Origin: Flectonema sp. DT1601
Lineage: Eukaryota
Direction of reading: 5' to 3'
Assembly: GCA_964019425.1 (NCBI GenBank)
Contig: OZ025798.1
Coordinates: forward strand, 682,001-746,000
DNA: 64,000 bases
The notes beneath the pieces are model-generated. The model was not told where the DNA came from and made no database searches. It was given only the letters and a program-made list of their open reading frames with translations. A program made the translations under genes and the position numbers. Every line of letters begins with the position of its first letter. Position 1 is the stretch's first letter. Positions 1-28,626 of the stretch are shown here, one piece after another.

Positions 1-17
1 GAGGATAGCAGGGAGAT

Positions 18-55
<38 letters not shown>

Positions 56-73
56 TTATTATTTAAAAAAAGG

Positions 74-308
74 AAACAATCAGTTTAGCGTCTCGATCAG
101 GACGGAAAATAGAAATTAATCGACATAGTCGATCGATAGAAAAAAAACAATGATAACATTGTTTATTCCTTTTTTTTTTTTTTTTTTTTATTCTTTTTAT
201 TTATTTTTAAAGAAAAAACAATCAGTTTAGCGTCCTGACCAGGACGGAAAATTGAAAGTGATCCACATAGTCGATCGATAGAAAAAAGACAATGATAACA
301 TTGTTTAT

Positions 309-341
<33 letters not shown>

Positions 342-733
342 CTTTTAATTATTTTAAAGAAAAAACAATCAGTTTAGCGTCTTGACCAGGACGGAAAATA
401 GAAAGTGATCGACATAGTCGATCGATAAAAAACAATGATAACATTGTTTATTCCTTTTTTTTTTCTTTTTTTTTTATTCTTTTTATTTATTTTTAAAGAA
501 AAAACAATCAGTTTAGCGTCCTGACCAGGACGGAAAATAGAAAGTAATCGACATAGTCGATCGATAAAAAAAAAACAATGATAACATTGTTTATTCCTTT
601 TTTTTTTCTTTTTTTTTATTCTTTTTATTTATTTTTAAAGAAAAAACAATCAGTTTAGCGTCCTGACCAGGACGGAAAATTGAAAGTGATCGACATAGTC
701 GATCGATAAAAAAACAATGATAACATTGTTTAT

Positions 734-764
<31 letters not shown>

Positions 765-1538
765 CCTTTTAATTATTTTTTAAAGAAAAAACAATCAGTT
801 TAGCGTCTTGACCAGGACGGAAAATAGAAAGTGATCGACATAGTCGATCGATAAAAAACAATGATAACATTGTTTATTCTTTTTTTTTTTTTTTTTTTTT
901 TTTAATCCTTTTTATTATTTTAAAGAAAAAACAATCAGTTTAGCGTCTTGACCAGGACGGAAAATAGAAAGTGATCGACATAGTCGATCGATAAAAAAAC
1001 AATGATAACATTGTTTATTCTTTTTTTTTTTTTTTTTTTTAAATTCTTTTTATTTATTTTTAAAGAAAAAAAACGGAAAATAAAAATTAGTCGACAAAGT
1101 CGAACGATAAAAAAAAACAATGATAACATTGTTTATTCTTTTTTTTTTTGTTTTTTTTTATATTCTTTTTTATTAATTTTGAAAAAAAAACAATCAGTTT
1201 AGCGTCTTGACCAGGACGGAAAATAGAAAGTAATCGACATAGTCGATCGATAAAAAAAACAATGATAACATTGTTTACTCTTTTTTTTTTTTTTTTTTAA
1301 ATTCTTTTTATTTTAAAAAGAAAAAAAACGGAAAATAGAAATTAGTCAACAAAGTCGAACGATAAAAAAAAAACAATGATAACATTGTTTATTCTTTTTT
1401 TTTTATTTTTTTTTTTATATTCTTTTTTATTAATTTTGAAAAAAAAAACAATCAGTTTAGCGTCTTGACCAGGACGGAAAATAGAAAGTGATCGACATAG
1501 TCGATCGATAAAAAAAAAACAATGATAACATTGTTTAT

Positions 1539-1575
<37 letters not shown>

Positions 1576-2620
1576 CTTTTTTTTTTTTTAAAGAAAAAAC
1601 AATCAGTTTAGCGTCTTGACCAGGACGGAAAATAGAAAGTAATCGACATAGTCGATCGATAAAAAAAACAATGATAACATTGTTTATTCTTTTTTTTTTT
1701 TTTTTTAAATCTTTTTATTTATTTTTTAAAAAGAAAAAAAAAAAACGGAAAATAGAAATTAGTCAACAACGTCGAACGATAAAAAAAAAAACAATGATAA
1801 CATTGTTTATTCTTTTTTTTTTTATTTTTTTTTGTATTCTTTTTTATTAATTTTGAAAAAAAAACAATCAGTTTTGCGTCTTGACCAGGACGGAAAATAG
1901 AAAGTGATCGACATAGTCGATCGATAAAAAAACAATGATAACATTGTTTATTCTTTTTTTTTTTTTTTTTTTTTTTAAATCCTTTTTATTATTTTTAAAG
2001 AAAAAACAATCAGTTTAGCGTCTTGACCAGGACGAAAAATAGAAAGTGATCGACATAGTCGATCGATAAAAAAACAATGATAACATTGTTTATTCTTTTT
2101 TTTTTTTTTCTTCTTTTTTTTAAATCCTTCTTTTTATTTTTTAAAGAAAAAACAATCAGTTTAGCGTCTTGACCAGGACGGAAAATAGAAAGTAATCGAC
2201 ATAGTCGATCGATAAAATAAAAACAATGATAACATTGTTTATTCCTTTTTTTTTTTTTTTTATTCTTTTTATTTATTTTTAAAGAAAAAAACGGAAAATA
2301 GAAAGTAATCGACATAGTCGATCGATAAAAAAACAATGATAACATTGTTTATTCTTTTTTTTTTTTTTTTTTTTTTAAATTCTTTTTATTTATTTTTTAA
2401 GAAAAAAACGGAGAATAGAAATTAGTCGACAAAGTCGAACGATAAAAAAACAATGATAACATTGTTTATTCTTTTTTTTATTTTTTTTTTTATATTCTTT
2501 TTTATTAATTTTGAAAAAAAAAAAAAAACAATCAGTTTAGCGTCTTGACCAGGACGGAAAATAGAAAGTAATCGACATAGTCGATCGATAAAAATACAAT
2601 GATAACATTGTTTAATCTTT
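74..2620 (+). repeat. Hairpin-rich satellite, ~19 monomers (type A ~143 bp, type B ~115 bp)
   Basis: Recurring CAATCAGTTTAGCGTCTTGACCAGGACGGAAAATAGAAAGTGATCGACATAGTCGATCGATA..AAACAATGATAACATTGTTT separated by poly-T/poly-A tracts. Confidence 0.97.
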
Positions 2621-2860
2621 TATAATTTTTTATTTTTTTTTTTGTTTTAAAAAAAAAAAAAAAAAACAAGCGGAATTGATCATAATGGGTGGTAGGGGTT
2701 GTTATAACTTCGTTTGAAAATTCTTCTTTTTTGATTTCTTTTTTTTTTTCTTTTTACAGGAGTTAAGATCACTTTCAGGAGACAACACATTAACAAGAGC
2801 AGCAAGCAGAGTTGACACTATCAATTCAAATTTGAAATACCGGGAATTAATTTACAAGGA

Positions 2861-2955
2861 GGTATCTCAAGTGACTTGGTATCTCTAGCGTGTCGGTATC
2901 TCTGGAGTGCTGGTATCTCGTATGTGCGTTGGTATCTCATGAGTGATGGTATCTC
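2861..2955 (+). repeat. Mini-array of 6 x GGTATCTC, ~17-bp period
   Basis: Copies start at 2861, 2878, 2895, 2912, 2931 and 2948, with 9-11 bp variable GTG-containing spacers. Also present near 16148, 17165(-), 23655(-) and 44180. Confidence 0.9.
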
Positions 2956-3285
2956 TTGTGCATTAGAGAAACGAAAAAGAATGTCATGACCATGACGGAA
3001 GAATTGAGGAATTGAGTTAACATGTTCAATTTAACTTATTTAAACTTTTTTTTTTTTTTTAACAGACCGTAACTATTTGAAAATAAAATGTAGATGGGAA
3101 ACAGTGAAAAGTAAAATGGATGATAAAATTAAATGAGAAATATGACATAACAGACCAGATAGAGAGTATTAAAAGGAAATTGAAAAGGAAAAGAGAAACT
3201 AGGTTAACACTTATTTAAAATTAAGACCGGTTAGTCAGTTTAAGGTCTTGACTAGGACCAACAAAAAAGAAAGAAAAAAAAATTT

Positions 3286-3940
3286 AACGATCAAGCTGAG
3301 CTGATCTTGTTTTTATTACAAATAGGGGAGCGGGAGGGATGGAAGGAATAGAGGAAAAAAAAAAGAAAAGGTTGATCAATTGGATCTGATCGTCGAGAAG
3401 AGGAAATTTTTTTAAAGGTTGATCGGTATAGCCGATCGTTGAGAAAAATAAACAGATATAAATACAATCAGTTTAAATTAAAAAAAGAAAAAAAGATTAA
3501 CGATCAAGCTGAGCTGATCTTGTTTTTATTACAAATAGGGGAGCGGGAGGGATGGAAGGAATAGAGGAAAAAAAAAGAAAAGGTTGATCAATTGGATCTG
3601 ATCGTCGAGAAGAAGAAATTATTTTAAAGGTTGATCGGTATAGCCGATCGTCGAGAAAAATAAACAGATATAAATACAATCAGTTTAAATTAAAAAAAGA
3701 AAAAAAGATTAACGATCAAGCTGAGCTGATCTTGTTTTTATTTAAAATTAGGGGAGCGGGAGGGATGGAAGGAATAAAGGAAAAAAAAAAAAAAAAAAGG
3801 TCGATCAATTGGATCTGATCGTCGAGAAGAAGAAAACAATTATTTATAAAAAAAAAATGGTCGGTATAGCCGATCGTTGAGAAAAGAACAGATATAAATA
3901 CAATCGGTTTTGGTGATCGACGAGTGGAGCGATCACTTGA
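3286..3940 (+). repeat. Three ~213-bp tandem repeats related to the satellite
   Basis: AACGATCAAGCTGAGCTGATC starts at 3286, 3499 and 3711. Shares ACAATCAGTTTA and the GATCG..ATAG..CGATC hairpin with the satellite. Confidence 0.93.
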
Positions 3941-4403
3941 CAAGAAGGAAAAAGAAAGGACCGATTAATTGGGGCTTTGATTGTATTCCCAAGGCATGTT
4001 TTTTTTTTTTTTTTTTTTATTATTCATTTACATTATTATTTTTTTTTTTTTTTTTAAATTAATAATCACATTTTGTTCAAAAATATTTCATATTAGAGTA
4101 AAAGAAAAAGAAAAAAAGAAATAAGAGAAAAAAAAAAAAAAAAAAAACCATTGCTGGCCCCCTCACCACTCATAGAGGATGAGGAGGCCAGTAAGGCGTC
4201 ACTCAAATCTATGCCAAGCCTTGGGAACTTGGATTGGGGTTTAGACCATTTATAATTAACAATTAACAATTAACCTGATTAACGTTATGATCTGACGGAC
4301 ATAAACATATCGATAAAATAATACAAACAAAAACGAACAATAAATAATAAATAAGCTAAAAAACTAACTAAACAAAGTGATGTGAAAGTAAGGAAAAAGA
4401 GAA

Positions 4404-7214
4404 TTACAAGGGGGTGGAGTCACCGTGAACGTCATCAGCAGAACATCTCCTTCGATTGTAACGATATCTTGATGGAGGGGTTCGTTTTTTCAGAGTTGAA
4501 CGCTCAGACTTTCTCGGCGGAGTTTCATTTTCCTCATGTTCTTCTGTGTCTGGCGGACTCAAACCTTCTGCCCATGAAGCTAATTGGAACTTCAGGGCCG
4601 CAATTTGAGACCGTGCCAAGGCGAGTTGAGCATTTAAATCGCTCGCCAGTCCCGTTAACATCATGGATTGCTCAAGCTGCTCTGCGTGAGTTGTACACCG
4701 TTGGTGATTCAGCTCCGAGAGGCGAAGTTGGGCATCCAGAAGTTGTTCTGAGAGCTCTGCCGCTTTCTCGTTTGTTTCGAGAGAGTCATCTACTGCTCGA
4801 CAGTAGTTCTCGAGTAAGTCAATCCTACCCTCGGACCATTGTCTCGCAATAGGTGTATTCTCTTTAACGGAGATAACGTGACTCTCTTGTCGTAAAATCT
4901 TGGTCGGCGTGCGGTCGAGAGCTTCACTCTGCGGCATTGTCGGAGGAATTGAGGCTAGAGGACAAAGAGGGGTGATATAATTAAGGGTAGGGATAAGGGG
5001 TTTAATAAGAGGAGTAAAAAGACTACTCGTAGTTGTAAAGAGCGAGAGGTAGTTCTTTGCTATCTTCATCATAGCAACAGATTCATACAGAACGGGGGTT
5101 CGGGGGGAAACTTGTTGACTAAAGTGGGTCATACGGGGACGCGCGGCACGCAAACTCTCGACCTCCTGTTGAGTATAGAAAAGTCTTATTTTACTTTCTC
5201 TTTCCTCATTACATTTGGTCTCCAATTCGTTCGACAGAAGAACAAACCTTTGATGGTAATTAAAGAGCGCCATTTCCGATAGGTCTGCTCTCTGAGTCAG
5301 ATTTGCGAGCTCACGTTTCCTGTAATCTTCCACTAAGTCATATTGTCGAACTAGTGCAGAAAGAGAAGTCTTCGATTCATCGCGTTCTGCTGTTAACCGT
5401 TGAATTACTCCTTCCAGAAGTTCATATTCTTTTCTATCTTTTTCAATAATTAAAACAGGGGGCGCAGGAGGAAGTGAGGATGGATCCTGGTTGGTAGCTT
5501 TGATCTCAACAGGTAATCCATTTAGTAACTGCTTGTCTTTCTCGAGGGAGGCTGACATCGCATTAAAGTAAAATAAAAATAGAACATAAAAAATTCGTTC
5601 TTTCATTTGCTCTAATTCGTTTTCTAAAATCTGGCATTTCAAGGAAAGTTTCAGCCTTAATTTTCCTTCTTTTTTTTTGTACAAGGGGGTTTGAGAACCC
5701 ATGTCAGATTGAGTTCTTATCACTATAGCGAAATCAGCAGGAAGTGTTTGCGATCCCGTTGACATGAGTTCAGGTGGGGGAGTCTGGAAAGAGATGGAAG
5801 AAATAGAAGAGAATGACAAGGAGAGTCCAGTGAGCTCATCCTCATCTAACAAAACAGAAGGGGCCGGGGAGGAAGAACCATTGGCAATAAGTAGAATAGA
5901 AAGAGCCGATGCGTAACAAGTTTGCCAGATAAAACATTTCTCAAGCCACGATCTTTCAATGGTGAGCTTTTCGATCGTTTTCAGTTTTGTTACTTTGTGG
6001 ATTTTGACTTCTTCCACAGGGAAGATTTCTTTACCATCTTTTATAAAACTTGCAGTGGCAGGTTCTTCTTTAATGCTGCGCATTAGTGGTCTTGAATGCC
6101 ACGTGGGGAGGTTCCTCGTCTGGAACAGAACATATGAGCACTGTCTGGCGATTCTGGTGCATTCACAAAATAAAGCTTTTGTTGGTGCTAAAGGTGAACC
6201 GATGTGACGTGTCCAGATGTTCAGCTGGTCCATGCAGATGTTTCCTCGTACGCCAACTTCAATAGTAAAAATGTTACAGTCGAAGCCATTAGCGATGATC
6301 GAGTCTCTTAGCTTTAGGTATTTCTTTTCCTTTAAGACATGAGAGGTTTCGAAACGATCTTCATTTGGACACGTCAGCTCCAGAATCAGTGCTCTTTTCG
6401 CAAAAAAAGAATAAATAAAAATGTCTGGTCTTAGAGAGGACGAGACATGGCACACTTCAAGAGGAACAATTAGGCGGTTATCACCGACATCGTCGAGGAT
6501 GACCCAATCATTCGCTAGTGAAAGTTCGCCTGTCTCTTTAGAAATTCTTTCTAGGGGTTTATTTTCCCCTGTTTTTAAAAAAGTTTGAGAGGGAGGCGGG
6601 AGGTTTTCTTTTCTTTTGTTGGCTTTTATTATCAACTCTTCCAAGAAGATAACAATGCGTTTTAGAACGCTGTCGTGACGCCACGTGAACCTCCCTTGTG
6701 TTAAAGAGACAGGACAGCCTGTTAAGACATGCCTGAGGGTAGGATTCACTTTGCCACACAAAACACAATTTTGGTCCACATTGGTGATGTTCCACCTCTT
6801 TAAATTATCTTGTGAGGGGAGGGTGTTTGTAACCGCTTTCAGTTGAAATGAGATATAGGCAGGATTTCCCTCCCTAAGTACCTTATTCCAGGTGAAATCG
6901 TTTATCATACATTTAGACCACTCCTTCCACTGACCTTGGACTTGTAATTTATTCAAAGAGTTCAGTAGTTCATCTGTGGCTTCCACTTCAAAACGCTTAA
7001 GGAGATCGGGGCGAGTAGTACGTAGATCGCGCAATCGGTGACCAAGACCAGCTGATTGCTTCGCAAGAGAACGGTAAGAAAAAAACTTAATAAGGCGCTC
7101 CCACTCAGCAGAAGCTGAAAACTTTTTCGACCAGTTGGACGATTTCTCCATAATAACATTGTAGACACCGTGCATGTCAGAGTCCTGTGAGGATCTGAGG
7201 ATGTCTAGTTTCAT
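4404..7214 (-). CDS. Retrotransposon ORF, C-terminal half: CCHC knuckle, restriction-like endonuclease, long coiled-coil extension
   Basis: CVLCGKVNPTLRHVLTGC, FTWRHDSVL, RPDI..ELTCP.E...KEKKY, IEVGVRG. Joins the RT half in frame (..AQSM|KLDI..) when 7215-7471 is removed. Confidence 0.93.
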   Translation of the reverse strand: MKLDILRSSQDSDMHGVYNVIMEKSSNWSKKFSASAEWERLIKFFSYRSLAKQSAGLGHRLRDLRTTRPDLLKRFEVEATDELLNSLNKLQVQGQWKEWSKCMINDFTWNKVLREGNPAYISFQLKAVTNTLPSQDNLKRWNITNVDQNCVLCGKVNPTLRHVLTGCPVSLTQGRFTWRHDSVLKRIVIFLEELIIKANKRKENLPPPSQTFLKTGENKPLERISKETGELSLANDWVILDDVGDNRLIVPLEVCHVSSSLRPDIFIYSFFAKRALILELTCPNEDRFETSHVLKEKKYLKLRDSIIANGFDCNIFTIEVGVRGNICMDQLNIWTRHIGSPLAPTKALFCECTRIARQCSYVLFQTRNLPTWHSRPLMRSIKEEPATASFIKDGKEIFPVEEVKIHKVTKLKTIEKLTIERSWLEKCFIWQTCYASALSILLIANGSSSPAPSVLLDEDELTGLSLSFSSISSISFQTPPPELMSTGSQTLPADFAIVIRTQSDMGSQTPLYKKKEGKLRLKLSLKCQILENELEQMKERIFYVLFLFYFNAMSASLEKDKQLLNGLPVEIKATNQDPSSLPPAPPVLIIEKDRKEYELLEGVIQRLTAERDESKTSLSALVRQYDLVEDYRKRELANLTQRADLSEMALFNYHQRFVLLSNELETKCNEERESKIRLFYTQQEVESLRAARPRMTHFSQQVSPRTPVLYESVAMMKIAKNYLSLFTTTSSLFTPLIKPLIPTLNYITPLCPLASIPPTMPQSEALDRTPTKILRQESHVISVKENTPIARQWSEGRIDLLENYCRAVDDSLETNEKAAELSEQLLDAQLRLSELNHQRCTTHAEQLEQSMMLTGLASDLNAQLALARSQIAALKFQLASWAEGLSPPDTEEHEENETPPRKSERSTLKKRTPPSRYRYNRRRCSADDVHGDSTPL

Positions 7215-7471
7215 GTTTGATTATTTCCTCTTCATATTTTTTTTCTATTCTTTCTTTTTTTTTTTTTTTTTTTTTTTCTCTACCTCTCTCTTAATTCTGT
7301 TCGTTTCTTTGAAACGAAAATTCATTTGAATATTATTCCTTGGTCAGCAACCATCATTGTCGCCCTTTGGGCCTGTTAAAAAAAAAAAAAAAATAAAAAG
7401 AAAGTTTACGTCGGGAATAGGGCAGGAGCCAAAAGCTCCCAGTCCGTTACTTCCCACTTATCGAAATTCAT
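7215..7471 (+). mobile_element. 257-bp insertion: 5'-truncated 3' end of the same element, antisense inside its own ORF
   Basis: Inverted copy of ~10228-10489, flanked by TTCAT at 7210-7214 and 7467-7471. Confidence 0.85.
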
Positions 7472-9787
7472 TGATTGCGCTTGTTTATATAGCGTCTCAA
7501 CTCTTTTGTGTCTGAGACCAACAGTGTTCTTTGAACCGGTAAAAAGGATGACTGTGTTCGCAGAGCGGACAAATCCCCACCATTTCTTCAAAAAAGGTTT
7601 AATAATTTTGTCCATTTTTTTGGCAAAAGGGAGAGATAAGTCATGGATCATTAAACTCCATGTTAACCTTGACAATAACAAGTGTTGGACAGACCAAGCC
7701 TTCTGAGACCCATATAGTGGCATGGCGTCGACTTTTTTTAAAAAATTCCTGGTAAAAGTGGTCAGGCGCTCTCGCAATTTCTGTTCTTTGGCGTTCGGCT
7801 CAAACCAACGCCCGAGGTATTTGAACTCTCCAGCTTCCTGGAGATTCGTAATCGGAACATTGTTAATCTTCAGGTCCGGGTTAGCTGGTTTCCCTTGTAC
7901 AAAGCTGTGGGCAATGCATTTCTGGGGTTTCGCTTTCATACCACGAGACCAGGAAAGAAACTGTTCGAGCGACTTGATTAGCAATTTTGCCCCCGCCTTT
8001 GATGACGTGGTAAGTTGTAAATCATCAGCAAAAGCTGCAACTAATAGTTGGAGGGATTTATTGTTAAACTCGTAGGCTTCCTGTTGATGAACTGCTAAGG
8101 AAAAGAGCAGTAGTTGGAATACCAAATTAAAAAGGGTTGGGGAGGAAACGCAGCCTTGAAAGACACCAACTTCAAAAGGGATAGTGGGCGTCAGGCCTTC
8201 TCCAACTCTGATTTGGACGCGCATGGAGGAATAATACCTTTTATAGAAACCGATTATTCTTTCGTGAATTCCGAAATATTTTAAAGCAAAGAAAATTAAT
8301 TGATGTTTGACTGAGCCGAAAGCATCTGCCAAATCCACCCAGACAATTGTTAGGTTTTTCCGGAGAGCTTTCACTTCTTTAAAAATCTCTGAGGTGATCG
8401 TGGCATGTTCGATACATCCAGAGACACCTTTCCTAAAGCCTTTTTGAAAATTAAATTTAGAAAGAGTGTGGTTTGCGACGGCTTCCTGAATAACCGTATT
8501 AAAAATTTTCCCGTCGCAGTTGCCCACAGCTATCGGTCTCGTTTTCGAGATGTCTTTCCCATCGGAGTTGGGCTTTGGGAGCATTGTTACAAATGCTAAG
8601 CCCCAACTATCCGGATAGGCCTTGAGTTCGAAAATTCTCTTTAATACCTTGTAAAGTGCTTCCATAAAAGTTGGGACCTTTTTCCATACAACATAAGGTA
8701 TGCAATTGGGACCAGGGGCACATTTGTTTTTTTTCTTTGATAAGAGAATACCAAACTGTTCGAAGCTCGGGAACTGGATATCATCCATTGTCTTGTAGTC
8801 AGACTTAGGTAAAAAAGAGGGATGGGTGAAATCAGTTTTTTTTTTTTCATTGTCACAATAGTTGTTTTTAAAATGTTCAATTATTTTTTCCTCTGGAATA
8901 TCAAGGGAGGGGGGTTGAGGATCTTCTTTTTGGAGTTCTTCTTTTATGGCAGTAAACGGATTTTGACGAAATTTATCTTGTAATTTTTTGAATAAATTTT
9001 TCTTTTCTAAATTCCGATACATTCGGAAAATCCTTTTCATTCTCGTTCTTGCCTCTTTCCATTTGACAGCGTTCTCTATAGAAGGCCCAGATTTGCGGAG
9101 CTCCTGTCTTAGCTGTTTCATTTCCAGACGACATTCAAGTTTTTCTTGGTCGAGGATGACCTCTTCCCTTGATTTCTGTTTGCGGGGTAAATTCCGCTTT
9201 GTTTCTTCAAAGAAACCGCTACATATTTGATAAACCGTTTTGAGTAGTTTATCAAGTTGGTCGGCAGGTTTTGAAGAATTTTCTGTTTCGACGGTGAAAG
9301 TTTGAAGTTTTTCTGCAGCAGAAACGTCGATGTCCTTCCATTCAGTTCCAAAAGATCGGAATTTGAGACGAGACGGGTGTAACGGGGTAAAAGTGGGTGT
9401 TGTAGAGTTATAAGGAACGAAAGCTGTTTGTGAAGTTTTAAAATCTACAGATTCTCCTACAAAGGGAGGTTCCAGGTCTGAATTATTCCCTGTGAGGGGA
9501 GACAGAGGTGTACCTTTACATGTACCGTTAACACAGTGTTTCGCTCTCGTAGCGATACTTTTGAAAAGCTTACCACATTCTGGACAAGGTAAGTGGTAAC
9601 AATCTTTAACTTGGGAGTGGGTAGATGGGGGAAAACGTGACTTATAGTCCTTAAATTCCTTACTAAACTTACAGTTACGTCTAAAATGCGCAACTGGACC
9701 TTTGAGGTATGTCTCAAAACATAAAGGACATTTGGCTACTAAAGTTTTATCCCCATCCAGAGCCGATCTCGAAATAGCCTCTTGCAA
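7406..9787 (-). CDS. Retrotransposon ORF, N-terminal half: two Zn-finger motifs plus reverse transcriptase (truncated by the 257-bp insertion)
   Basis: CPLC..H....C and CPEC..HC motifs. RT motifs APGPNCIPY, RPIAVGN, QKGF, VDLADAFGSV, GVFQGCVSSPTLF, FADD, FKYLG. The last ~20 aa come from the insertion. Confidence 0.95.
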   Translation of the reverse strand: MQEAISRSALDGDKTLVAKCPLCFETYLKGPVAHFRRNCKFSKEFKDYKSRFPPSTHSQVKDCYHLPCPECGKLFKSIATRAKHCVNGTCKGTPLSPLTGNNSDLEPPFVGESVDFKTSQTAFVPYNSTTPTFTPLHPSRLKFRSFGTEWKDIDVSAAEKLQTFTVETENSSKPADQLDKLLKTVYQICSGFFEETKRNLPRKQKSREEVILDQEKLECRLEMKQLRQELRKSGPSIENAVKWKEARTRMKRIFRMYRNLEKKNLFKKLQDKFRQNPFTAIKEELQKEDPQPPSLDIPEEKIIEHFKNNYCDNEKKKTDFTHPSFLPKSDYKTMDDIQFPSFEQFGILLSKKKNKCAPGPNCIPYVVWKKVPTFMEALYKVLKRIFELKAYPDSWGLAFVTMLPKPNSDGKDISKTRPIAVGNCDGKIFNTVIQEAVANHTLSKFNFQKGFRKGVSGCIEHATITSEIFKEVKALRKNLTIVWVDLADAFGSVKHQLIFFALKYFGIHERIIGFYKRYYSSMRVQIRVGEGLTPTIPFEVGVFQGCVSSPTLFNLVFQLLLFSLAVHQQEAYEFNNKSLQLLVAAFADDLQLTTSSKAGAKLLIKSLEQFLSWSRGMKAKPQKCIAHSFVQGKPANPDLKINNVPITNLQEAGEFKYLGRWFEPNAKEQKLRERLTTFTRNFLKKVDAMPLYGSQKAWSVQHLLLSRLTWSLMIHDLSLPFAKKMDKIIKPFLKKWWGFVRSANTVILFTGSKNTVGLRHKRVETLYKQAQSMNFDKWEVTDWELLAPALFPT

Positions 9788-10623
9788 AGCCTCGGGGGCT
9801 GGGTTGGCTGAGAGATGGTTGCCAGTATCTTTATGACACCGCCGGCCCGGTGTTTCTTTTTTTTTTTGTTGTGAAGTAGCAATAATAAAAAAAAAAAAAA
9901 ATAGAAAAGAGAATGGCTCAGAAACAATATCGATGAGTTAAGATCTTTTTTTTTAAACTATTCCTTTTTTTTTAATTTCGGGCAGCTAACCCTAGAGTTT
10001 TTTTTGGTAAATACTGTTTAAAGGAAAACGAGCTACGCTCTAAAACAGAAAAATCGGAGTAACTACTTGTTTATAATATATATTTTGATAAATAATGTGG
10101 TTGGCAAATGAATGCCGAAGAGGCAACTTGAGAAAAGCAATTGGATGAGAAGAAACATTGGGTCTTATAAAGCAAAGTAGATAGAGGGGCCTAAAAAGAC
10201 CGCAGAGTGGATAGCTCCACAAAAGGCTGAATTTCGATAAGTGGGAAGTAACGGACTGGGAGCTTTTGGCTCCTGCCCTATTCCCGACGTAAACTTTCTT
10301 TTTATTTTTTTTTTTTTTTTAACAGGCCCAAAGGGCGACAATGATGGTTGCTGACCAAGGAATAATATTCAAATGAATTTTCGTTTCAAAGAAACGAACA
10401 GAATTAAGAGAGAGGTAGAGAAAAAAAAAAAAAAAAAAAAAAAGAAAGAATAGAAAAAAAATATGAAGAGGAAATAATCAAACATGAAAAAAAAAAAAAA
10501 AATAAAATATAAATAAAAAACGTTGTATGAAAAAGGAAAAAAAGAAAAAAAAAAGACCAGAAAAGGAAAGAGAAAATGAAAAGGTATAATATTATTGTGG
10601 GGATATGAGGATAGCAGGGAGAT

Positions 10624-10661
<38 letters not shown>

Positions 10662-10679
10662 TTATTATTTAAAAAAAGG

Positions 10680-10914
10680 AAACAATCAGTTTAGCGTCTC
10701 GATCAGGACGGAAAATAGAAATTAATCGACATAGTCGATCGATAGAAAAAAAACAATGATAACATTGTTTATTCCTTTTTTTTTTTTTTTTTTTTATTCT
10801 TTTTATTTATTTTTAAAGAAAAAACAATCAGTTTAGCGTCCTGACCAGGACGGAAAATTGAAAGTGATCCACATAGTCGATCGATAGAAAAAAGACAATG
10901 ATAACATTGTTTAT

Positions 10915-10947
<33 letters not shown>

Positions 10948-17782: not shown

Positions 17783-18029
17783 AGATACCTCCTTGTAAAT
17801 TAATTCCCGGTATTTCAAATTTGAATTGATAGTGTCAACTCTGCTTGCTGCTCTTGTTAATGTGTTGTCTCCTGACAGTGATCTTAACTCCTGTAAAAAG
17901 AAAAACAAAAAAGAAATCAAAAAAGAAGAATTTTCAAACGAAGTTATAACAACCCCTACCACCCATTATGATCAATTCCGCTTGTTTTTTTTTTTTTTTT
18001 AAAACAAAAAAAAAATAAAAAATTATAAA

Positions 18030-18270
18030 AGATTAAACAATGTTATCATTGTATTTTTATCGATCGACTATGTCGATTACTTTCTATTTTCCGTCCTGGT
18101 CAAGACGCTAAACTGATTGTTTTTTTTTTTCCCAAAATTAATAAAAAAGAATATAAAAAAAAAAAAAATAAAAAAAAGAATAAACAATGTTATCATTGTT
18201 TTTTTATCGTTCGACTTTGTCGACTAATTTCTATTTTCCGTTTTTTTTTTCTTAAAAAATAAATAAAAAG

Positions 18271-18305
<35 letters not shown>

Positions 18306-18809
18306 TAAACAATGTTATCATTGTTTTTTTATCGATCGACTATGTCGATTACTTTCTATTTTCCGTCCTGGTCAAGACGCTAAACTGATTGTTTTTTTTT
18401 TTTTTTTTTCAAAATTAATAAAAAAGAATATAAAAAAAAAAAATAAAAAAAAGAATAAACAATGTTATCATTGTTTTTTTATCGTTCGACTTTGTCGACT
18501 AAATTCTATTTTCCGTTTTTTTCTCTTAAAAAATAAATAAAAAGAATTTAAAAAAAAAAAAAAAAAAAAGAATAAACAATGTTATCATTGTTTTTTTATC
18601 GATCGACTTTGTCGACTAATTTCTATTTTCCGTCCTGGTCAGGACGCTAAACTGATTGTTTTTTTTTTTTTCAAAATTAATAAAAAAGATTATAAAAAAA
18701 AAAAAAATAAAAAAAAAGAATAAACAATGTTATCATTGTTTTTTTATCGTTCGACTTTGTCGACTAATTTCTATTTTCCGTTTTTTTCTCTTAAAAAATA
18801 AATAAAAAG

Positions 18810-18844
<35 letters not shown>

Positions 18845-19632
18845 TAAACAATGTTATCATTGTTTTTTTATCGATCGACTATGTCGATTACTTTCTATTT
18901 TCCGTCCTGGTCAAGACGCTAAACTGATTGTTTTTTTTTTTTTTTTTTCAAAATTAATAAAAAAGAATATAAAAAAAAAAAATAAAAAAAAGAATAAACA
19001 ATGTTATCATTGTTTTTTTATCGTTCGACTTTGTCGACTAAATTCTATTTTCCGTTTTTTTCTCTTAAAAAATAAATAAAAAGAATTTAAAAAAAAAAAA
19101 AAAAAAAAGAATAAACAATGTTATCATTGTTTTTTTATCGATCGACTTTGTCGACTAATTTCTATTTTCCGTCCTGGTCAGGACGCTAAACTGATTGTTT
19201 TTTTTTTTTTCAAAATTAATAAAAAAGATTATAAAAAAAAAAAAAATAAAAAAAAAGAATAAACAATGTTATCATTGTTTTTTTATCGTTCGACTTTGTC
19301 GACTAATTTCTATTTTCCGTTTTTTTCTCTTAAAAAATAAATAAAAAGAATTTAAAAAAAAAAAAAAAAAAAAAAAGAATAAACAATGTTATCATTGTTT
19401 TTTTATCGATCGACTATGTCGATTACTTTCTATTTTCCGTCCTGGTCAAGACGCTAAACTGATTGTTTTTTTTTTTCAAAATTAATAAAAAAGATTATAA
19501 AAAAAAAAAAAAAAAAAAGAATAAACAATGTTATCATTGTTTTTTTATCGATCGACTATGTCGATCACTTTCTATTTTTCGTCCTGGTCAAGACGCTAAA
19601 CTGATTGTTTTTTCTTTAAAAATAATAAAAAG

Positions 19633-19668
<36 letters not shown>

Positions 19669-21106
19669 ATAAACAATGTTATCATTGTTTTTTTTTATCG
19701 ATCGACTTTGTCGATCACTTTCTATTTTCCGTCCTGGTCAAGACGCTAAACTGATTGTTTTTTTTTCAAAATTAATAAAAAAGAATATAAAAAAAAAATA
19801 AAAAAAAATAAAAAAAAATAAAAAAAAAAGAATAAACAATGTTATCATTGTTTTTTTTTTTTATTGTTCGACTTTGTTGACTAATTTCTATTTTCCGTTT
19901 TTTTTTTTTCTTTTTAACATAGATGGAAGTGCCCTCCAAATTTGGAGGGCGCCTGGTGAAAATAAGCCACAAAAATTTGTAGGGCCAAAATAGGGCCATT
20001 GTAGGGCCAAAATAGGGCCAAAATAGGGCGCTGGAGGGCGCGTAGGGCGCTTTTTTAATTAAATTTAATATAATGCCGAGCTCATTTTGACACACCCCTG
20101 CCCTCAGCGAGGTCGAATCGCATCTTATTTGACTTTTCTCCGGTTCGCCCGATCAAATGCGTCTCTGGGATATCAGTTTACTTGCCACCAGTAAACTTCT
20201 TTTTTTTCTCACAAGGTACCGTGAAGACCGGCCTATTAACAGGTTAGCAAGAACGCACTCTACCTCCTCGAATCCCTCTATATTCGACTTGGTGCATTCT
20301 GCGGGCTAATCAGCTCCTTGTAGATCTGGGATGCATCGTCCACTGAAATGAGTTTCAGCTTCAGGGATTGCAGCTCTCAAGGAGTGGTCCATTGTTTTTG
20401 CCATTGTTGACCGTCGAACCATGACCTGGAGGTCTCGGGTTCGAACCCCGTGACACCCTTTTTTCTCTTTTTCGAAAGACTGCCAAGCATGTCAAAAAAA
20501 ATTTTTTTGGCTTCTGCGTCAAAATACTTGTGCGTCAGTGTAAGTCCCTGTCAATTTAGCTGTCTTATAGTAATAAAAAAGGAAAAAAAAAGCGCCCTCC
20601 AAAATAATATTTATATTAAAAGCGCCCTACAAGCGCCCTACACGCCCTCCAAATTGTAGGGCACTTCCATCTATGTTTTAAAAAATAAATAAAAAGAATT
20701 TAAAAAAAAAAAAAAAAAAAAAGAATAAACAATGTTATCATTGTTTTTTTTTTCATCGATCGACTATGTCGATTACTTTCTATTTTCCGTCCTGGTCAAG
20801 ACGCTAAACTGATTGTTTTTTTTCAAAATTAATAAAAAAGAATATAAAAAAAAAACAAAAACAAAAAGAATAAACAATGCTATCATTTTTTTTTTTTTTT
20901 ATCGTTCGACTTTGTCGACTAATTTTTATTTTCCGTTTTTTTTTCTTTAAAAATAAATAAAAAGAAATTAAAAAAAAAAAAAAAAAAAAAAGAATAAACA
21001 ATGTTATCATTGTTTTTTTAGCGATCGACTATGTCGATCACTTTCTATTTTCCGTCCTGGTCAAGACGCTAAACTGATTGTTTTTTCTTTAAAATAATTA
21101 AAAGGA

Positions 21107-21138
<32 letters not shown>

Positions 21139-21248
21139 TAAACAATGTTATCATTGTTTTTTATCGATCGACTATGTCGATCACTTTCTATTTTCCGTCC
21201 TGGTCAAGACGCTAAACTGATTGTTTTTTCTTTAAAAAATAATTAAAA

Positions 21249-21287
<39 letters not shown>

Positions 21288-21401
21288 TTAATCAATGTTA
21301 TCATTGTTTTTTTTATCGATCGACTATGTCGATCACTTTCAATTTTCCGTCCTGGTCAAGACGCTAAACTGATTGTTTTTTCTTTAAAAAATAATAAGAA
21401 G

Positions 21402-21438
<37 letters not shown>

Positions 21439-21550
21439 ATAAACAATGTTATCATTGTTTTTTTATCGATCGACTATGTCGATCACTTTCTATTTTTCGT
21501 CCTGGTCAAGACGCTAAACTGATTGTTTTTTCTTTAAAAATAATAAAAAG

Positions 21551-21587
<37 letters not shown>

Positions 21588-21631
21588 ATAAACAATGTTA
21601 TCATTGTTTTTTTTTATCGATCGACTATGTC
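18030..21631 (-). repeat. Hairpin satellite array, inverted, interrupted by a MITE
   Basis: Reverse complement of the A/B monomers. Confidence 0.95.
19918..20675. mobile_element. MITE family 1 (CATAGATGGAAGTGCCCT terminal inverted repeats, 6-bp TSD TTTTAA)
   Basis: TIRs at both ends, subterminal (T/G)AGGGC(G/C) repeats, and an empty paralogous site near 27185. Confidence 0.92.
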
Positions 21632-24600
21632 TATCACCCCTCTTTGTCCTCTAGCCTCAATTCCTCCGACAATGCCGCAGAGTGAAGCTCTCGACCGCAC
21701 GCCGACCAAGATTTTACGACAAGAGAGTCACGTTATCTCCGTTAAAGAGAATACACCTATTGCGAGACAATGGTCCGAGGGTAGGATTGACTTACTCGAG
21801 AACTACTGTCGAGCAGTAGATGACTCTCTCGAAACAAACGAGAAAGCGGCAGAGCTCTCAGAACAACTTCTGGATGCCCAACTTCGCCTCTCGGAGCTGA
21901 ATCACCAACGGTGTACAACTCACGCAGAGCAGCTTGAGCAATCCATGATGTTAACGGGACTGGCGAGCGATTTAAATGCTCAACTCGCCTTGGCACGGTC
22001 TCAAATTGCGGCCCTGAAGTTCCAATTAGCTTCATGGGCAGAAGGTTTGAGTCCGCCAGACACAGAAGAACATGAGGAAAATGAAACTCCGCCGAGAAAG
22101 TCTGAGCGTTCAACTCTGAAAAAACGAACCCCTCCATCAAGATATCGTTACAATCGAAGGAGATGTTCTGCTGATGACGTTCACGGTGACTCCACCCCCT
22201 TGTAATTCTCTTTTTCCTTACTTTCACATCACTTTGTTTAGTTAGTTTTTTAGCTTATTTATTATTTATTGTTCGTTTTTGTTTGTATTATTTTATCGAT
22301 ATGTTTATGTCCGTCAGATCATAACGTTAATCAGGTTAATTGTTAATTGTTAATTATAAATGGTCTAAACCCCAATCCAAGTTCCCAAGGCTTGGCATAG
22401 ATTTGAGTGACGCCTTACTGGCCTCCTCATCCTCTATGAGTGGTGAGGGGGCCAGCAATGGTTTTTTTTTTTTTTTTTTTTCTCTTATTTCTTTTTTTCT
22501 TTTTCTTTTACTCTAATATGAAATATTTTTGAACAAAATGTGATTATTAATTTAAAAAAAAAAAAAAAAAATAATAATGTAAATGAATAATAAAAAAAAA
22601 AAAAAAAAAAACATGCCTTGGGAATACAATCAAAGCCCCAATTAATCGGTCCTTTCTTTTTCCTTCTTGTCAAGTGATCGCTCCACTCGTCGATCACCAA
22701 AACCGATTGTATTTATATCTGTTCTTTTCTCAACGATCGGCTATACCGACCATTTTTTTTTTATAAATAATTGTTTTCTTCTTCTCGACGATCAGATCCA
22801 ATTGATCGACCTTTTTTTTTTTTTTTTTTCCTTTATTCCTTCCATCCCTCCCGCTCCCCTAATTTTAAATAAAAACAAGATCAGCTCAGCTTGATCGTTA
22901 ATCTTTTTTTCTTTTTTTAATTTAAACTGATTGTATTTATATCTGTTTATTTTTCTCGACGATCGGCTATACCGATCAACCTTTAAAATAATTTCTTCTT
23001 CTCGACGATCAGATCCAATTGATCAACCTTTTCTTTTTTTTTCCTCTATTCCTTCCATCCCTCCCGCTCCCCTATTTGTAATAAAAACAAGATCAGCTCA
23101 GCTTGATCGTTAATCTTTTTTTCTTTTTTTAATTTAAACTGATTGTATTTATATCTGTTTATTTTTCTCAACGATCGGCTATACCGATCAACCTTTAAAA
23201 AAATTTCCTCTTCTCGACGATCAGATCCAATTGATCAACCTTTTCTTTTTTTTTTCCTCTATTCCTTCCATCCCTCCCGCTCCCCTATTTGTAATAAAAA
23301 CAAGATCAGCTCAGCTTGATCGTTAAATTTTTTTTTCTTTCTTTTTTGTTGGTCCTAGTCAAGACCTTAAACTGACTAACCGGTCTTAATTTTAAATAAG
23401 TGTTAACCTAGTTTCTCTTTTCCTTTTCAATTTCCTTTTAATACTCTCTATCTGGTCTGTTATGTCATATTTCTCATTTAATTTTATCATCCATTTTACT
23501 TTTCACTGTTTCCCATCTACATTTTATTTTCAAATAGTTACGGTCTGTTAAAAAAAAAAAAAAAGTTTAAATAAGTTAAATTGAACATGTTAACTCAATT
23601 CCTCAATTCTTCCGTCATGGTCATGACATTCTTTTTCGTTTCTCTAATGCACAAGAGATACCATCACTCATGAGATACCAACGCACATACGAGATACCAG
23701 CACTCCAGAGATACCGACACGCTAGAGATACCAAGTCACTTGAGATACCTCCTTGTAAATTAATTCCCGGTATTTCAAATTTGAATTGATAGTGTCAACT
23801 CTGCTTGCTGCTCTTGTTAATGTGTTGTCTCCTGAAAGTGATCTTAACTCCTGTAAAAAGAAAAAAAAAAAGAAATCAAAAAAGAAGAATTTTCAAACGA
23901 AGTTATAACAACCCCTACCACCCATTATGATCAATTCCGCTTGTTTTTTTTTTTTTTTTTTTTTTAAAACAAAAAAAAAAATAAAAAATTATAAAAGATT
24001 AAACAATGTTATCATTGTATTTTTATCGATCGACTATGTCGATTACTTTCTATTTTCCGTCCTGGTCAAGACGCTAAACTGATTGTTTTTTTTTTTTTTT
24101 CAAAATTAATAAAAAAGAATATAAAAAAAAAAATAAAAAAAAGAATAAACAATGTTATCATTGTTTTTTTATCGTTCGACTTTGTCGACTAATTTCTATT
24201 CTCCGTTTTTTTCTTAAAAAATAAATAAAAAGAATTTAAAAAAAAAAAAAAAAAAAAAAGAATAAACAATGTTATCATTGTTTTTTTATCGATCGACTAT
24301 GTCGATTACTTTCTATTTTCCGTTTTTTTCTTTAAAAATAAATAAAAAGAATAAAAAAAAAAAAAAAAGGAATAAACAATGTTATCATTGTTTTTATTTT
24401 ATCGATCGACTATGTCGATTACTTTCTATTTTCCGTCCTGGTCAAGACGCTAAACTGATTGTTTTTTCTTTAAAAAATAAAAAGAAGGATTTAAAAAAAA
24501 GAAGAAAAAAAAAAAAAAGAATAAACAATGTTATCATTGTTTTTTTATCGATCGACTATGTCGATCACTTTCTATTTTTCGTCCTGGTCAAGACGCTAAA

Positions 24601-25038
24601 CTGATTGTTTTTTCTTTAAAAATAATAAAAAGGATTTAAAAAAAAAAAAAAAAAAAAAAAGAATAAACAATGTTATCATTGTTTTTTTATCGATCGACTA
24701 TGTCGATCACTTTCTATTTTCCGTCCTGGTCAAGACGCAAAACTGATTGTTTTTTTTTCAAAATTAATAAAAAAGAATACAAAAAAAAATAAAAAAAAAA
24801 AGAATAAACAATGTTATCATTGTTTTTTTTTTTATCGTTCGACGTTGTTGACTAATTTCTATTTTCCGTTTTTTTTTTTTCTTTTTAAAAAATAAATAAA
24901 AAGATTTAAAAAAAAAAAAAAAAAGAATAAACAATGTTATCATTGTTTTTTTTATCGATCGACTATGTCGATTACTTTCTATTTTCCGTCCTGGTCAAGA
25001 CGCTAAACTGATTGTTTTTTCTTTAAAAAAAAAAAAAG

Positions 25039-25075
<37 letters not shown>

Positions 25076-25849
25076 ATAAACAATGTTATCATTGTTTTTT
25101 TTTTATCGATCGACTATGTCGATCACTTTCTATTTTCCGTCCTGGTCAAGACGCTAAACTGATTGTTTTTTTTTTCAAAATTAATAAAAAAGAATATAAA
25201 AAAAAAAATAAAAAAAAAAGAATAAACAATGTTATCATTGTTTTTTTTTTTATCGTTCGACTTTGTTGACTAATTTCTATTTTCCGTTTTTTTTCTTTTT
25301 AAAATAAAAAGAATTTAAAAAAAAAAAAAAAAAAGAGTAAACAATGTTATCATTGTTTTTTTTATCGATCGACTATGTCGATTACTTTCTATTTTCCGTC
25401 CTGGTCAAGACGCTAAACTGATTGTTTTTTTTTCAAAATTAATAAAAAAGAATATAAAAAAAAACAAAAAAAAAAAGAATAAACAATGTTATCATTGTTT
25501 TTTTTTATCGTTCGACTTTGTCGACTAATTTTTATTTTCCGTTTTTTTTCTTTAAAAATAAATAAAAAGAATTTAAAAAAAAAAAAAAAAAAAGAATAAA
25601 CAATGTTATCATTGTTTTTTTATCGATCGACTATGTCGATCACTTTCTATTTTCCGTCCTGGTCAAGACGCTAAACTGATTGTTTTTTCTTTAAAATAAT
25701 AAAAAGGATTAAAAAAAAAAAAAAAAAAAAAAAAGAATAAACAATGTTATCATTGTTTTTTATCGATCGACTATGTCGATCACTTTCTATTTTCCGTCCT
25801 GGTCAAGACGCTAAACTGATTGTTTTTTCTTTAAAAAATAATTAAAAGG

Positions 25850-25880
<31 letters not shown>

Positions 25881-26272
25881 ATAAACAATGTTATCATTGT
25901 TTTTTTATCGATCGACTATGTCGATCACTTTCAATTTTCCGTCCTGGTCAGGACGCTAAACTGATTGTTTTTTCTTTAAAAATAAATAAAAAGAATAAAA
26001 AAAAAGAAAAAAAAAAGGAATAAACAATGTTATCATTGTTTTTTTTTTATCGATCGACTATGTCGATTACTTTCTATTTTCCGTCCTGGTCAGGACGCTA
26101 AACTGATTGTTTTTTCTTTAAAAATAAATAAAAAGAATAAAAAAAAAAGAAAAAAAAAAGGAATAAACAATGTTATCATTGTTTTTTATCGATCGACTAT
26201 GTCGATCACTTTCTATTTTCCGTCCTGGTCAAGACGCTAAACTGATTGTTTTTTCTTTAAAATAATTAAAAG

Positions 26273-26305
<33 letters not shown>

Positions 26306-26558
26306 ATAAACAATGTTATCATTGTCTTTTTTCTATCGATCGACTATGTGGATCACTTTCAATTTTCCGTCCTGGTCAGGACGCTAAACTGATTGTTTTT
26401 TCTTTAAAAATAAATAAAAAGAATAAAAAAAAAAAAAAAAAAAAGGAATAAACAATGTTATCATTGTTTTTTTTCTATCGATCGACTATGTCGATTAATT
26501 TCTATTTTCCGTCCTGATCGAGACGCTAAACTGATTGTTTCCTTTTTTTAAATAATAA

Positions 26559-26596
<38 letters not shown>

Positions 26597-26992
26597 ATCT
26601 CCCTGCTATCCTCATATCCCCACAATAATATTATACCTTTTCATTTTCTCTTTCCTTTTCTGGTCTTTTTTTTTTCTTTTTTTCCTTTTTCATACAACGT
26701 TTTTTATTTATATTTTATTTTTTTTTTTTTTTTTCATGTTTGATTATTTCCTCTTCATATTTTTTTTCTATTCTTTCTTTTTTTTTTTTTTTTTTTTTTT
26801 CTCTACCTCTCTCTTAATTCTGTTCGTTTCTTTGAAACGAAAATTCATTTGAATATTATTCCTTGGTCAGCAACCATCATTGTCGCCCTTTGGGCCTGTT
26901 AAAAAAAAAAAAAAAATAAAAAGAAAGTTTACGTCGGGAATAGGGCAGGAGCCAAAAGCTCCCAGTCCGTTACTTCCCACTTATCGAAATTC
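21632..26992 (+). mobile_element. 5.36-kb 5'-truncated retrotransposon copy inserted in satellite
   Basis: ORF tail (to 22205), then a near-identical inverse of 4403->1, then the terminal region to ..TATCGAAATTC. TGTC duplicated at 21628-21631 and 26993-26996, and the flanking satellite is continuous. Confidence 0.85.
24000..26540 (-). repeat. Hairpin satellite array (inverse of 74-2620)
   Basis: Monomer-by-monomer match including rare variants. Confidence 0.95.
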
Positions 26993-27616
26993 TGTCGATC
27001 ACTTTCTATTTTCCGTCCTGGTCAAGACGCTAAACTGATTGTTTTTTTTTCAAAATTAATAAAAAAGAATATAAAAAAAAATAAAAAAAAATAAAAAAAA
27101 AAGAATAAACAATGTTATCATTGTTTTTTTTTTTTTATTGTTCGACTTTGTTGACTAATTTCTATTTTCCGTTTTTTTTTTTTCTTTTTAAAAAATAAAT
27201 AAAAAGAATTTAAAAAAAAAAAAAAAAAAAAGAATAAACAATGTTATCATTGTTTTTTTTTTCATCGATCGACTATGTCGATTACTTTCTATTTTCCGTC
27301 CTGGTCAAGACGCTAAACTGATTGTTTTTTTTCAAAATTAATAAAAAAGAATATAAAAAAAAAACAAAAACAAAAAGAATAAACAATGCTATCATTTTTT
27401 TTTTTTTTTATCGTTCGACTTTGTCGACTAATTTTTATTTTCCGTTTTTTTTTCTTTAAAAATAAATAAAAAGAAATTAAAAAAAAAAAAAAAAAAAAAA
27501 AGAATAAACAATGTTATCATTGTTTTTTTAGCGATCGACTATGTCGATCACTTTCTATTTTCCGTCCTGGTCAAGACGCTAAACTGATTGTTTTTTCTTT
27601 AAAATAATAAAAAGGA

Positions 27617-27648
<32 letters not shown>

Positions 27649-27758
27649 TAAACAATGTTATCATTGTTTTTTATCGATCGACTATGTCGATCACTTTCTA
27701 TTTTCCGTCCTGGTCAAGACGCTAAACTGATTGTTTTTTCTTTAAAAAATAATTAAAA

Positions 27759-27796
<38 letters not shown>

Positions 27797-28056
27797 TTAA
27801 TCAATGTTATCATCGTTTTTTTTATCGATCGACTATGTCGATCACTTTCAATTTTCCGTCCTGGTCAGGACGCTAAACTGATTGTTTTTTCTTTAAAAAT
27901 AAATGAAAAGAACAAAAAAAAAAAAAAAAAAAAAAAAAAGGAATAAACAATGTTATCATTGTTTTTTTTTATCGATCGACTATGTCGATTACTTTCTATT
28001 TTCCGTCCTGGTCAAGACGCTAAACTGATTGTTTTTTCTTTAAAATAATTAAAAGG

Positions 28057-28090
<34 letters not shown>

Positions 28091-28180
28091 TAAACAATGT
28101 TATCATTGTTTTTTTTCTATCGATCGACTATGTCGATTAATTTCTATTTTCCGTCCTGATCGAGACGCTAAACTGATTGT
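26993..28180 (-). repeat. Hairpin satellite array
   Basis: Paralogous to ~19720-21360 without the MITE. Confidence 0.93.
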
Positions 28181-28196
28181 TTCCTTTTTTTAAATA

Positions 28197-28231
<35 letters not shown>

Positions 28232-28626
28232 ATCTCCCTGCTATCCTCATATCCCCACAATAATATTATACCTTTTCATTTTCTCTTTCCTTTTCTAGTC
28301 TTTTTTTTTCTTTTTTTCCTTTTTCATACAACGTTTTTTATTTATATATTTTTTTTTTTTTTTTTTCATGTTTGATTATTTCCTCTTCATATTTTTTTTT
28401 TTTCTATTCTTTCTTTTTTTTTTTTTTTTTTCTCTGCCTCTCTCTCAATTCTGTTCGTTTCTTTGAAACGAAAATTCATTTGAATATTATTCCTTGGTCA
28501 GCAACCATCATTGTCGCCCTTTGGGCCTGTTAAAAAAAAAAATAAAAATAAAAAGAAAGTTTACATCGGGAATAGGGCAGGAGCCAAAAGCTCCCAGTCC
28601 GTTACTTCCCACTTTATCGAAACTCA

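Follow-up and report, generated by a model that had tools for sequence, protein, structure and literature searches.

A restriction-like endonuclease retrotransposon family of Flectonema sp. DT1601 that likely carries a satellite array between its stop codon and a fixed hairpin end

A stretch of 64,000 nucleotides from Flectonema sp. DT1601 (contig OZ025798.1, positions 682,001 to 746,000 of the forward strand; hereafter the window) was analyzed. Its bases 1–48,100 form a nest of repeats, beyond which lie ordinary genes, and by protein domains and insertion signature this nest represents one family of retrotransposons that lack long terminal repeats (non-LTR) and belong to the restriction-like endonuclease (RLE) type. 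We consider it likely that this family carries a satellite array inside the 4.8-kb stretch between its stop codon and a fixed end preceded by a hairpin and spreads it, with an RNA of about 10 kb as the template for target-primed reverse transcription. The domain order, the fixed 3′ end, the variable 5′ ends, one clean target-site duplication (TSD), the nesting of copies and two junctions of a 3′ end with a 5′ end can be read directly in the DNA. An earlier reading of the same letters (the original prediction) had named the RLE type, the fixed 3′ end and the variable 5′ truncation, and all three are borne out, by the domains, by five 3′ ends and by the 5′ ends of the copies, respectively.

The element is about 10,350 bp long, and its copy A lies on the minus strand. 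The 5′ untranslated region (UTR) of copy A (9938–10227) starts directly after the 3′ end of another copy, B, with no TSD and no poly(A). It is followed by an open reading frame (ORF) that runs from 9937 to 4404 and is interrupted by a 257-bp inverted copy of the element 3′ terminus (7215–7471, plus strand), with microhomology at both ends; when this insert is skipped the frame stays open for 1,758 codons, and the database protein P0008 reads through the site of the insert. The 5′ part of the ORF (7472–9937, minus strand) encodes two Cys/His motifs at residues 70 and 118, spotted by eye in an N-terminus that has no Pfam match, and a reverse transcriptase (RT) domain (PF00078, E 8e-27) whose best PDB matches are R2 proteins (E 4e-28). 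As the first in-frame ATG is codon 273, the ORF probably starts at a non-AUG codon. The 3′ part (4404–7214, minus strand) holds a CX2CX8HX4C knuckle at residue 972 and a match to PF13966; the knuckle that follows the RT in RLE elements has the form CX2-3CX7-8HX4C (PMC5678591). Further on are a putative nuclease motif of the PD..E kind (RPD..ILELT, residues 1084–1105), which by motif has a counterpart in 82 relatives, and a tail of 653 residues. No Pfam match to an apurinic/apyrimidinic endonuclease domain was found in the element ORF.

The median length beyond the nuclease motif is 98 residues among the 83 proteins that bear it (83 of 230 stored proteins, the window element included and one cluster being heavily repeated). 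The 653-residue tail has no Pfam match and is predicted, in a low-confidence model (pLDDT 45), to form long helices with a basic end. Compared with an older fragment at 47157, it is under moderate purifying selection (pN/pS 0.38, p = 0.004), and in the RT part nine of the ten differences seen in public contigs are synonymous. Typical RLE elements have the nuclease near the C-terminus and a short 3′ UTR, features that are not defining, whereas the window element has this tail and a long 3′ region instead. In related RLE proteins, a ubiquitin hydrolase domain (PF00443) lies beyond the nuclease in P0129, P0138 and P0174 by Pfam scan and in P0012 and P0015 by precomputed matches; it was present in three of the longest-tailed other proteins tested, suggesting that the clade tends to acquire C-terminal extras.

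The 3′ region measures 4,403 + 378 = 4,781 bp from the stop codon to the fixed end, in agreement with the predicted 4.8 kb, and consists, in this order, of 1.7 kb of unique sequence, an array of 19 units and a 378-bp terminus. The unique part (2661–4403, minus strand) contains three 212-bp repeats (3266–3910) and a hairpin at about 4155–4190. The array of copy A (20–2660, minus strand, about 2.7 kb) is built of units of about 142 bp, with three short hairpins, or of about 117 bp, with two (fold z = −3.3 for the array unit); wobble-pair strand bias in these hairpins is mixed. Its sense strand has long A tracts, including 12 runs of at least 15 A, which may, as a weaker idea taken from the sequence, stand in for a poly(A) tail. 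Bases 1–19 of the window are already unique sequence of the terminal side, and the rest of the copy A terminus, which lies off the window, is shown by copies B and C. In copy B the terminus occupies 10228–10606 (minus strand) and ends in a hairpin (10285–10243) and TATCGAAATTCA. With a fold z of −0.99 in an 86-nt context, the fold of this hairpin is by itself not beyond chance. A pseudoknot of its loop with the start of the 5′ UTR was rejected, since 12.5% of 1,459 control windows pair equally well. The exact 38-nt hairpin had no match in JGI metagenomes, and the array motif had none in viral contigs.

The same hairpin precedes every one of five 3′ ends in the window. The motif TATCGAAA(T/C)TC ends at 7469, 13985, 26992 and 28625 on the plus strand, and a fifth copy lies at 10239–10229 on the minus strand. 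In element coordinates the ends fall at 10228, 10223, 10229, 10228 and 10228, and five ends inside 6 nt of a 10.3-kb element are not chance. The predicted clustering of junctions at one motif after a stem-loop is thus found, and it includes one end that had not been listed as a junction. None of the five ends carries poly(A). Ends within about 6 nt of GAAA(T/C)TCA are also present in one public contig and in one database protein, P0009, where the terminus is inserted in antisense (inverted) within an ORF. Four of the 15 listed public sequencing runs were examined for junctions, and the one with a readable flank (run X1) showed an independent junction terminating in GAAATTCA.

Three inserts with such ends measure 257, 109 and 5,361 bp, matching the 257 bp, about 110 bp and 5.36 kb given before. 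The three short TSDs that had been claimed for them stand only in part: TGTC is clean, TTCAT is ambiguous (0–5 bp) because both insert ends match the target, and TTGTTT is offset by 10 filler bases on the 5′ side and has a 2-nt overlap with the element on the 3′ side. The TGTC duplication flanks the longest insert, copy C (21632–26992, plus strand), which is the equivalent of 4977 to 1 followed by the 378-bp terminus, so that it starts in the ORF tail and crosses all 19 array units, just as the original prediction had it for the 5.36-kb copy. Over these 4,977 bp, which include 54 runs of at least 8 A/T, it shows no substitution and four homopolymer indels with respect to copy A. The unit order f to g of the host array continues across the insertion, as in the neighbouring duplicate block.

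Copy C speaks against an explanation in which the satellite is a host array targeted by the element, with gene conversion or duplication of DNA in the nest giving it the appearance of cargo. Three insertion sites lie within the array, DNA-level duplications are present (a 501-bp direct one at 38915/39814 and an 8-unit block in copy D), and the L1-CS long interspersed elements (LINEs) that target CUS-TR24 in Cuscuta (PMC8091179) are a precedent. However, copy C ends at most 1 nt from the end of independent short inserts and has its TSD in register at the far 5′ end, and only by coincidence could a DNA-level duplication share its end base with these unrelated inserts. In addition, the same unique sequences bound the array in every copy, and the insertion sites fall at varied positions of the array unit, the three in satellite among five usable ones being near the 39% share of the satellite in the nest. 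We consider this explanation very unlikely. The same count limits the earlier term self-inserting, which fits the nested copies as a description but is not supported as a preference. That blocks A, B and C, which are nearly identical, are products of misassembly is extremely improbable: A and B do share 767 + 2,438 bp with no substitution, but C has its own indels and TSD, copies D, E, F and J diverge by 0.3–9%, and both the ORF and the 3′ end recur in public contigs and proteins.

The array is also found consistently with the element. All six arrays of the window (A, B, C, D, F and G–J) are bounded by element-specific sequence in the same orientation, the internal boundary being common to five copies and the terminal one to four, plus A, and the older copy J, 1.5–8.9% diverged in its unique 3′ sequence, meets the array at the identical base. 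The proposal that the satellite is cargo therefore stands in the sense that the array travels within the 3′ region, as supported by copy C, the six arrays and the older copy; that this region is a transcribed 3′ UTR is a supposition drawn from DNA. The long 3′ region is atypical, as had been noted before, when compared with relatives (the best 80 of 183 loci, with RT identities of about 30–35%). In nine relatives with an intact ORF of at least 1,200 aa, forming complete units, the non-coding distance from stop to next ORF is 293–937 bp, versus about 5,070 bp in the window element. For those 38 of the 80 loci in which motif and stop are both present, a median of 449 bp remains before the contig ends, and no repeat period exceeds 65 bp, in short-read contigs that are biased against arrays.

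These short distances imply that the 4.8-kb region was acquired at some time, and they would fit a short-tailed ORF element that in one ORF lineage became fused to an independent, non-autonomous retroelement bearing the satellite, or to host flanking sequence captured by 3′ transduction. Most window copies (F, D, G–J and those of 257 and 109 bp) are without ORF, and two pieces, a fragment at 44099 and a piece of the 3′ region inserted in antisense in the protein P0068, stop just short of the array. Nevertheless, 5′ truncation of an element with a long tail predicts ORF-less copies, no window copy ends near the stop codon, copies B and C each join ORF sequence to the far end, and the terminal hairpin adjoins the element's own 5′ UTR twice, so we regard such a fusion of two entities as unlikely. 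Most likely, the array began as a repeat that expanded within the 3′ region as a hitch-hiker.

Several observations weigh against spread of the array as cargo by target-primed reverse transcription. All the evidence is DNA of one window; two of the three claimed TSDs are ambiguous, and the copy that ends at 28626 (copy D) has no matched TSD. Copy C is the only one that reaches from ORF to terminus and can be seen with its two flanks, copy A having its 3′ end outside the window. No ribozyme or known RNA family was found at either element end by Rfam, a hepatitis delta virus (HDV) descriptor or hammerhead core scans. The fragment at 44099 stops at the equivalent of 2780 and the P0068 piece near 2745, copy G lacks about 370 of the 378 terminal bases, and a terminus piece in P0007 stops early; later deletion would explain these four cases, yet they are a caution. 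Copy B has lost 14 of the 19 units, so copies can exist with less than the full array, and the 29- and 48-unit arrays may have grown in source copies or after insertion.

The arrays contain 19, 5, 19, 29, 15 and 48 units in A, B, C, D, F and G–J, respectively, and show higher-order repeats in the form of dimers and the 8-unit block. These counts and duplications suggest that retrotransposition seeds the arrays and that DNA-level change resizes them. Three inverted-end insertions and other repeats also sit within the arrays. The original prediction that retrotransposition itself builds the repeat domain is thus retained for seeding but does not account for the domain by itself, as the range of 5–48 units, the duplications and the insertions point to DNA-level expansion as well. 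Wherever the element lands, it probably seeds new satellite DNA.

Two head-to-tail junctions, which like the 653-residue tail had not been covered before, connect element ends with each other. The 3′ end of copy B abuts the 5′ UTR of copy A without spacer (junction 10228), and a second 3′|5′ junction lies at 45356 in copy E (44769–45413, minus strand, 0.85% diverged from A), whose first base is the initial G of the terminal hairpin, in variant sequence, and which goes on with 5′ UTR and ORF start. A 109-bp terminus copy in the array of copy F (13883–13991, plus strand) has at its 3′ end 3–5 extra bases that match the 5′ UTR start. Together, these three cases suggest that a template can run on beyond the element end and into the copy that lies downstream. 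For the extra-base tail, read-through of partial tandems is favoured; for B|A and E, either read-through or a template jump could be responsible, and end-to-end template jumps have been described for the R2 RT (PMC3414825). At 10226–10229 (minus strand) the junction also has the sequence ...TTCAG, which lies downstream of long tracts of pyrimidines and may be a splice acceptor; in a euglenozoan, trans-splicing there could define both element ends.

The following cycle would account for spread by target-primed reverse transcription. A head-to-tail locus such as B|A would be transcribed through, a read-through that is expected in a host with polycistronic transcription; Diplonema has polycistronic gene clusters with repeat regions between them (PMC10161547). 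The protein would bind the terminal hairpin and cDNA would begin at about GAAAUUC/A, with no poly(A) tail needed, or sometimes a few bases into the 5′ end of the next copy. The nuclease would nick with little sequence preference, in such a way that copies land in the existing nest, and synthesis would stop anywhere between 0.1 kb and more than 10 kb, array units being deposited by copies that exceed about 0.4 kb. Slippage or unequal exchange would then alter the array, giving 5 to 48 units, and DNA transposons would add to it.

Overlapping contig ends were detected in 16 of the 80 relative loci (15 when one poly(A) artefact is dropped), and in five of these the ORF is divided between the two ends; such overlaps would be accounted for by circles, terminal repeats or tandem arrays. 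A wider scenario, to which we give only tentative credit and which we hold as rather doubtful, is that of a widespread RLE lineage living as head-to-tail tandems, with the 3′ hairpin as a pseudo-LTR in a Penelope-like manner (RNA from the upstream copy, cDNA inside read-through RNA). The 3′ region would here be a functional array of hairpins and A tracts that replaces poly(A) and seeds satellite, possibly at centromeres or strand-switch regions. P0060, P0061, P0068 and P0094 form a sister RT family with 61–70% identity, and a tree made by a quick method from 48 of 91 rows, with relatives and no named references, places the window element on a long branch with P0060. The element may resemble HERO elements, for which this tree has no named reference.

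One subclade of relatives has a conserved RNA of about 85 nt shortly past the stop codon (L014:190–274, L021:230–313, L034:3614–3698, L043:3211–3295, L076:4451–4535 and 11 more), with a predicted three-way junction and pseudoknot. In its model 95% of the cells are paired and 14 of the 26 pairs have double-sided changes, against 0 of 500 shuffles, the sequences being related. It occurs in 16 of the 80 loci, seven of them outside the training set. It had no Rfam match in the loci scanned and no match in the window element; its model did not match the terminal hairpin and gave four weak matches in a G+C-rich inverted repeat at 38560–38978. By its conservation it is a candidate new 3′-end recognition RNA or ribozyme. 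A weak match to Twister-P5 (22.5 bits, E 0.98, below gathering) was found at L005:4606–4671, in a relative with overlapping ends.

The rest of copy B (10607–13820, minus strand) contains the ORF equivalent of 6750 to 4313, an internal deletion of about 3.5 kb and five array units, and is identical to A. Its 5′ end and the 109-bp insert have as target copy F (13821–16347, minus strand), with 15 array units and 400 bp of unique 3′ region. Copy D (16351–28626, plus strand) is 5′-truncated at the equivalent of 3985, has 29 array units and a terminus that ends at 28626, and is interrupted by another repeat, by an element resembling miniature inverted-repeat transposable elements (19910–20675) and by copy C. 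The older copy G/H/I/J (31549–41393, minus strand) holds 48 array units, adjoined by unique 3′ region as far as the equivalent of 4229, lacks most of the terminus, and carries two inverted-end insertions (34752–35520 and 38403–39231).

The sequences at 19910–20675 and 34752–35520 are 1.7% diverged and represent one non-coding element of 770 bp, which has terminal inverted repeats and both times is placed in A/T tracts of the array. The insertion at 38403–39231 is of a second type, with internal G/C-rich hairpin repeats, and part of it lies inside the perfect 501-bp duplication (38915–39415 = 39814–40314). Another repeat family, with units of about 1.4 kb in tandem and inverted arrangement, occupies 28627–31548, 41394–43642 and 17252–17781 and is the target of the copy D 3′ end. 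A 10-nt match to a spliced-leader (SL) motif and a hammerhead-core-like string in this family had no support from Rfam, and U2- and SL-like snippets seen by eye were not supported either; the excess of the 10-nt motif (11 versus 3.3 expected) corresponds to copies of one other repeat. Rfam gave no match at gathering in the window, and in 1–11500 only weak, chance-level ones; a tRNA search gave none. Contig depth was higher for the hairpin than for the RT in three of four runs, a comparison that was not used since depth is not copy number. Beyond the nest, a 799-aa gene at 52201 has its best named match in Diplonema papillatum (47%), with unnamed transcriptome matches at 76% and 52%, and as a single gene points to a diplonemid, or a euglenozoan closely related to them, as the likely host; this host gene (52201–54600) fuses serine hydrolase FSH1, RWD and Obg-like GTPase domains, a fusion common to Diplonema and other protists.

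If the proposed cycle is right, an RLE RT would copy over 5 kb of hairpins and 20–36-nt homopolymers almost error-free, and the 3′ end would be fixed by a hairpin without any tail; both points would matter for R2-type insertion tools. The clade deserves dedicated study for its tandem habit and for the undescribed conserved RNA of the relatives.

Among known systems, two assignments were rejected. The R2 clade has a 28S rDNA target and a 5′ HDV-like ribozyme, and here Rfam found no rRNA or ribozyme and the HDV descriptor gave no match at either end. Utopia and CRE-SLACS target U2 snRNA or spliced-leader genes, for which there was no Rfam match at gathering, although a diplonemid SL gene might escape Rfam. 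The targets of the window element are an ORF, the array and another repeat. HERO/NeSL-like RLE elements (PMC4640811) share with it a single ORF that encodes an RT, a CCHC knuckle and a restriction-like nuclease, with Cys/His motifs at the N-terminus that in the window element are candidates, as well as fixed 3′ and variable 5′ ends and, for many HERO families, weak target specificity; the window element differs in its 4.8-kb 3′ region, its 19-unit array and the 653 residues beyond the nuclease motif.

Internal tandem repeats in RLE elements are already known from the CRE-related MoTeR1 and FoTeR (PMC12857005), which have variable arrays inside the element, the largest of MoTeR1 lying near its 3′ end. 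FoTeR has 3′ UTRs of 336–409 bp and repeats of at most about 1.4 kb in total, mostly 5′, and both elements target telomere repeats, whereas the array of the window element is 2.7–6.4 kb long and 3′, with no telomeric target seen. Penelope-like elements (PMC11167929) resemble the window junctions in that their copies lie in full or partial tandem and give pseudo-LTRs, that a 3′ tail may be taken from the copy downstream, and that the template is a read-through RNA. They differ in having a GIY-YIG nuclease and hammerhead ribozymes, neither found here (by Pfam, and with hammerhead core matches only in another repeat), and a tail of 30–40 nt, versus 3–5 nt in one window copy.

In Cuscuta, L1-CS is mixed with CUS-TR24, but that satellite is target and not cargo (PMC8091179), and Cryptococcus Cnl1 (bioRxiv 2021.08.11.455996) is a LINE piled into arrays, with no internal satellite seen in the part of the preprint covered. 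No RLE element with a multi-kb 3′ satellite turned up in the open literature, as far as its accessible text goes, Repbase and subscription papers being outside this coverage. That satellites derive from retroelement 3′ ends is already known (PMC9659126): the 3′ regions of HeT-A/TART and of Ogre are the sources of the 18HT and PisTR-A satellites, in head-to-tail arrays (PMC9659126, PMC10088271). HeT-A/TART are polyadenylated, telomeric elements of the Jockey clade and Ogre is an LTR element, whereas the window shows the array within an RLE copy that has 0 substitutions and lacks a poly(A) tail. Satellites have often been traced to retroelement 3′ ends only after the fact; here, an array within a 0-substitution copy with its TSD, beside older copies whose arrays reach 48 units, makes seeding and later DNA-level growth separable and measurable in one genome.

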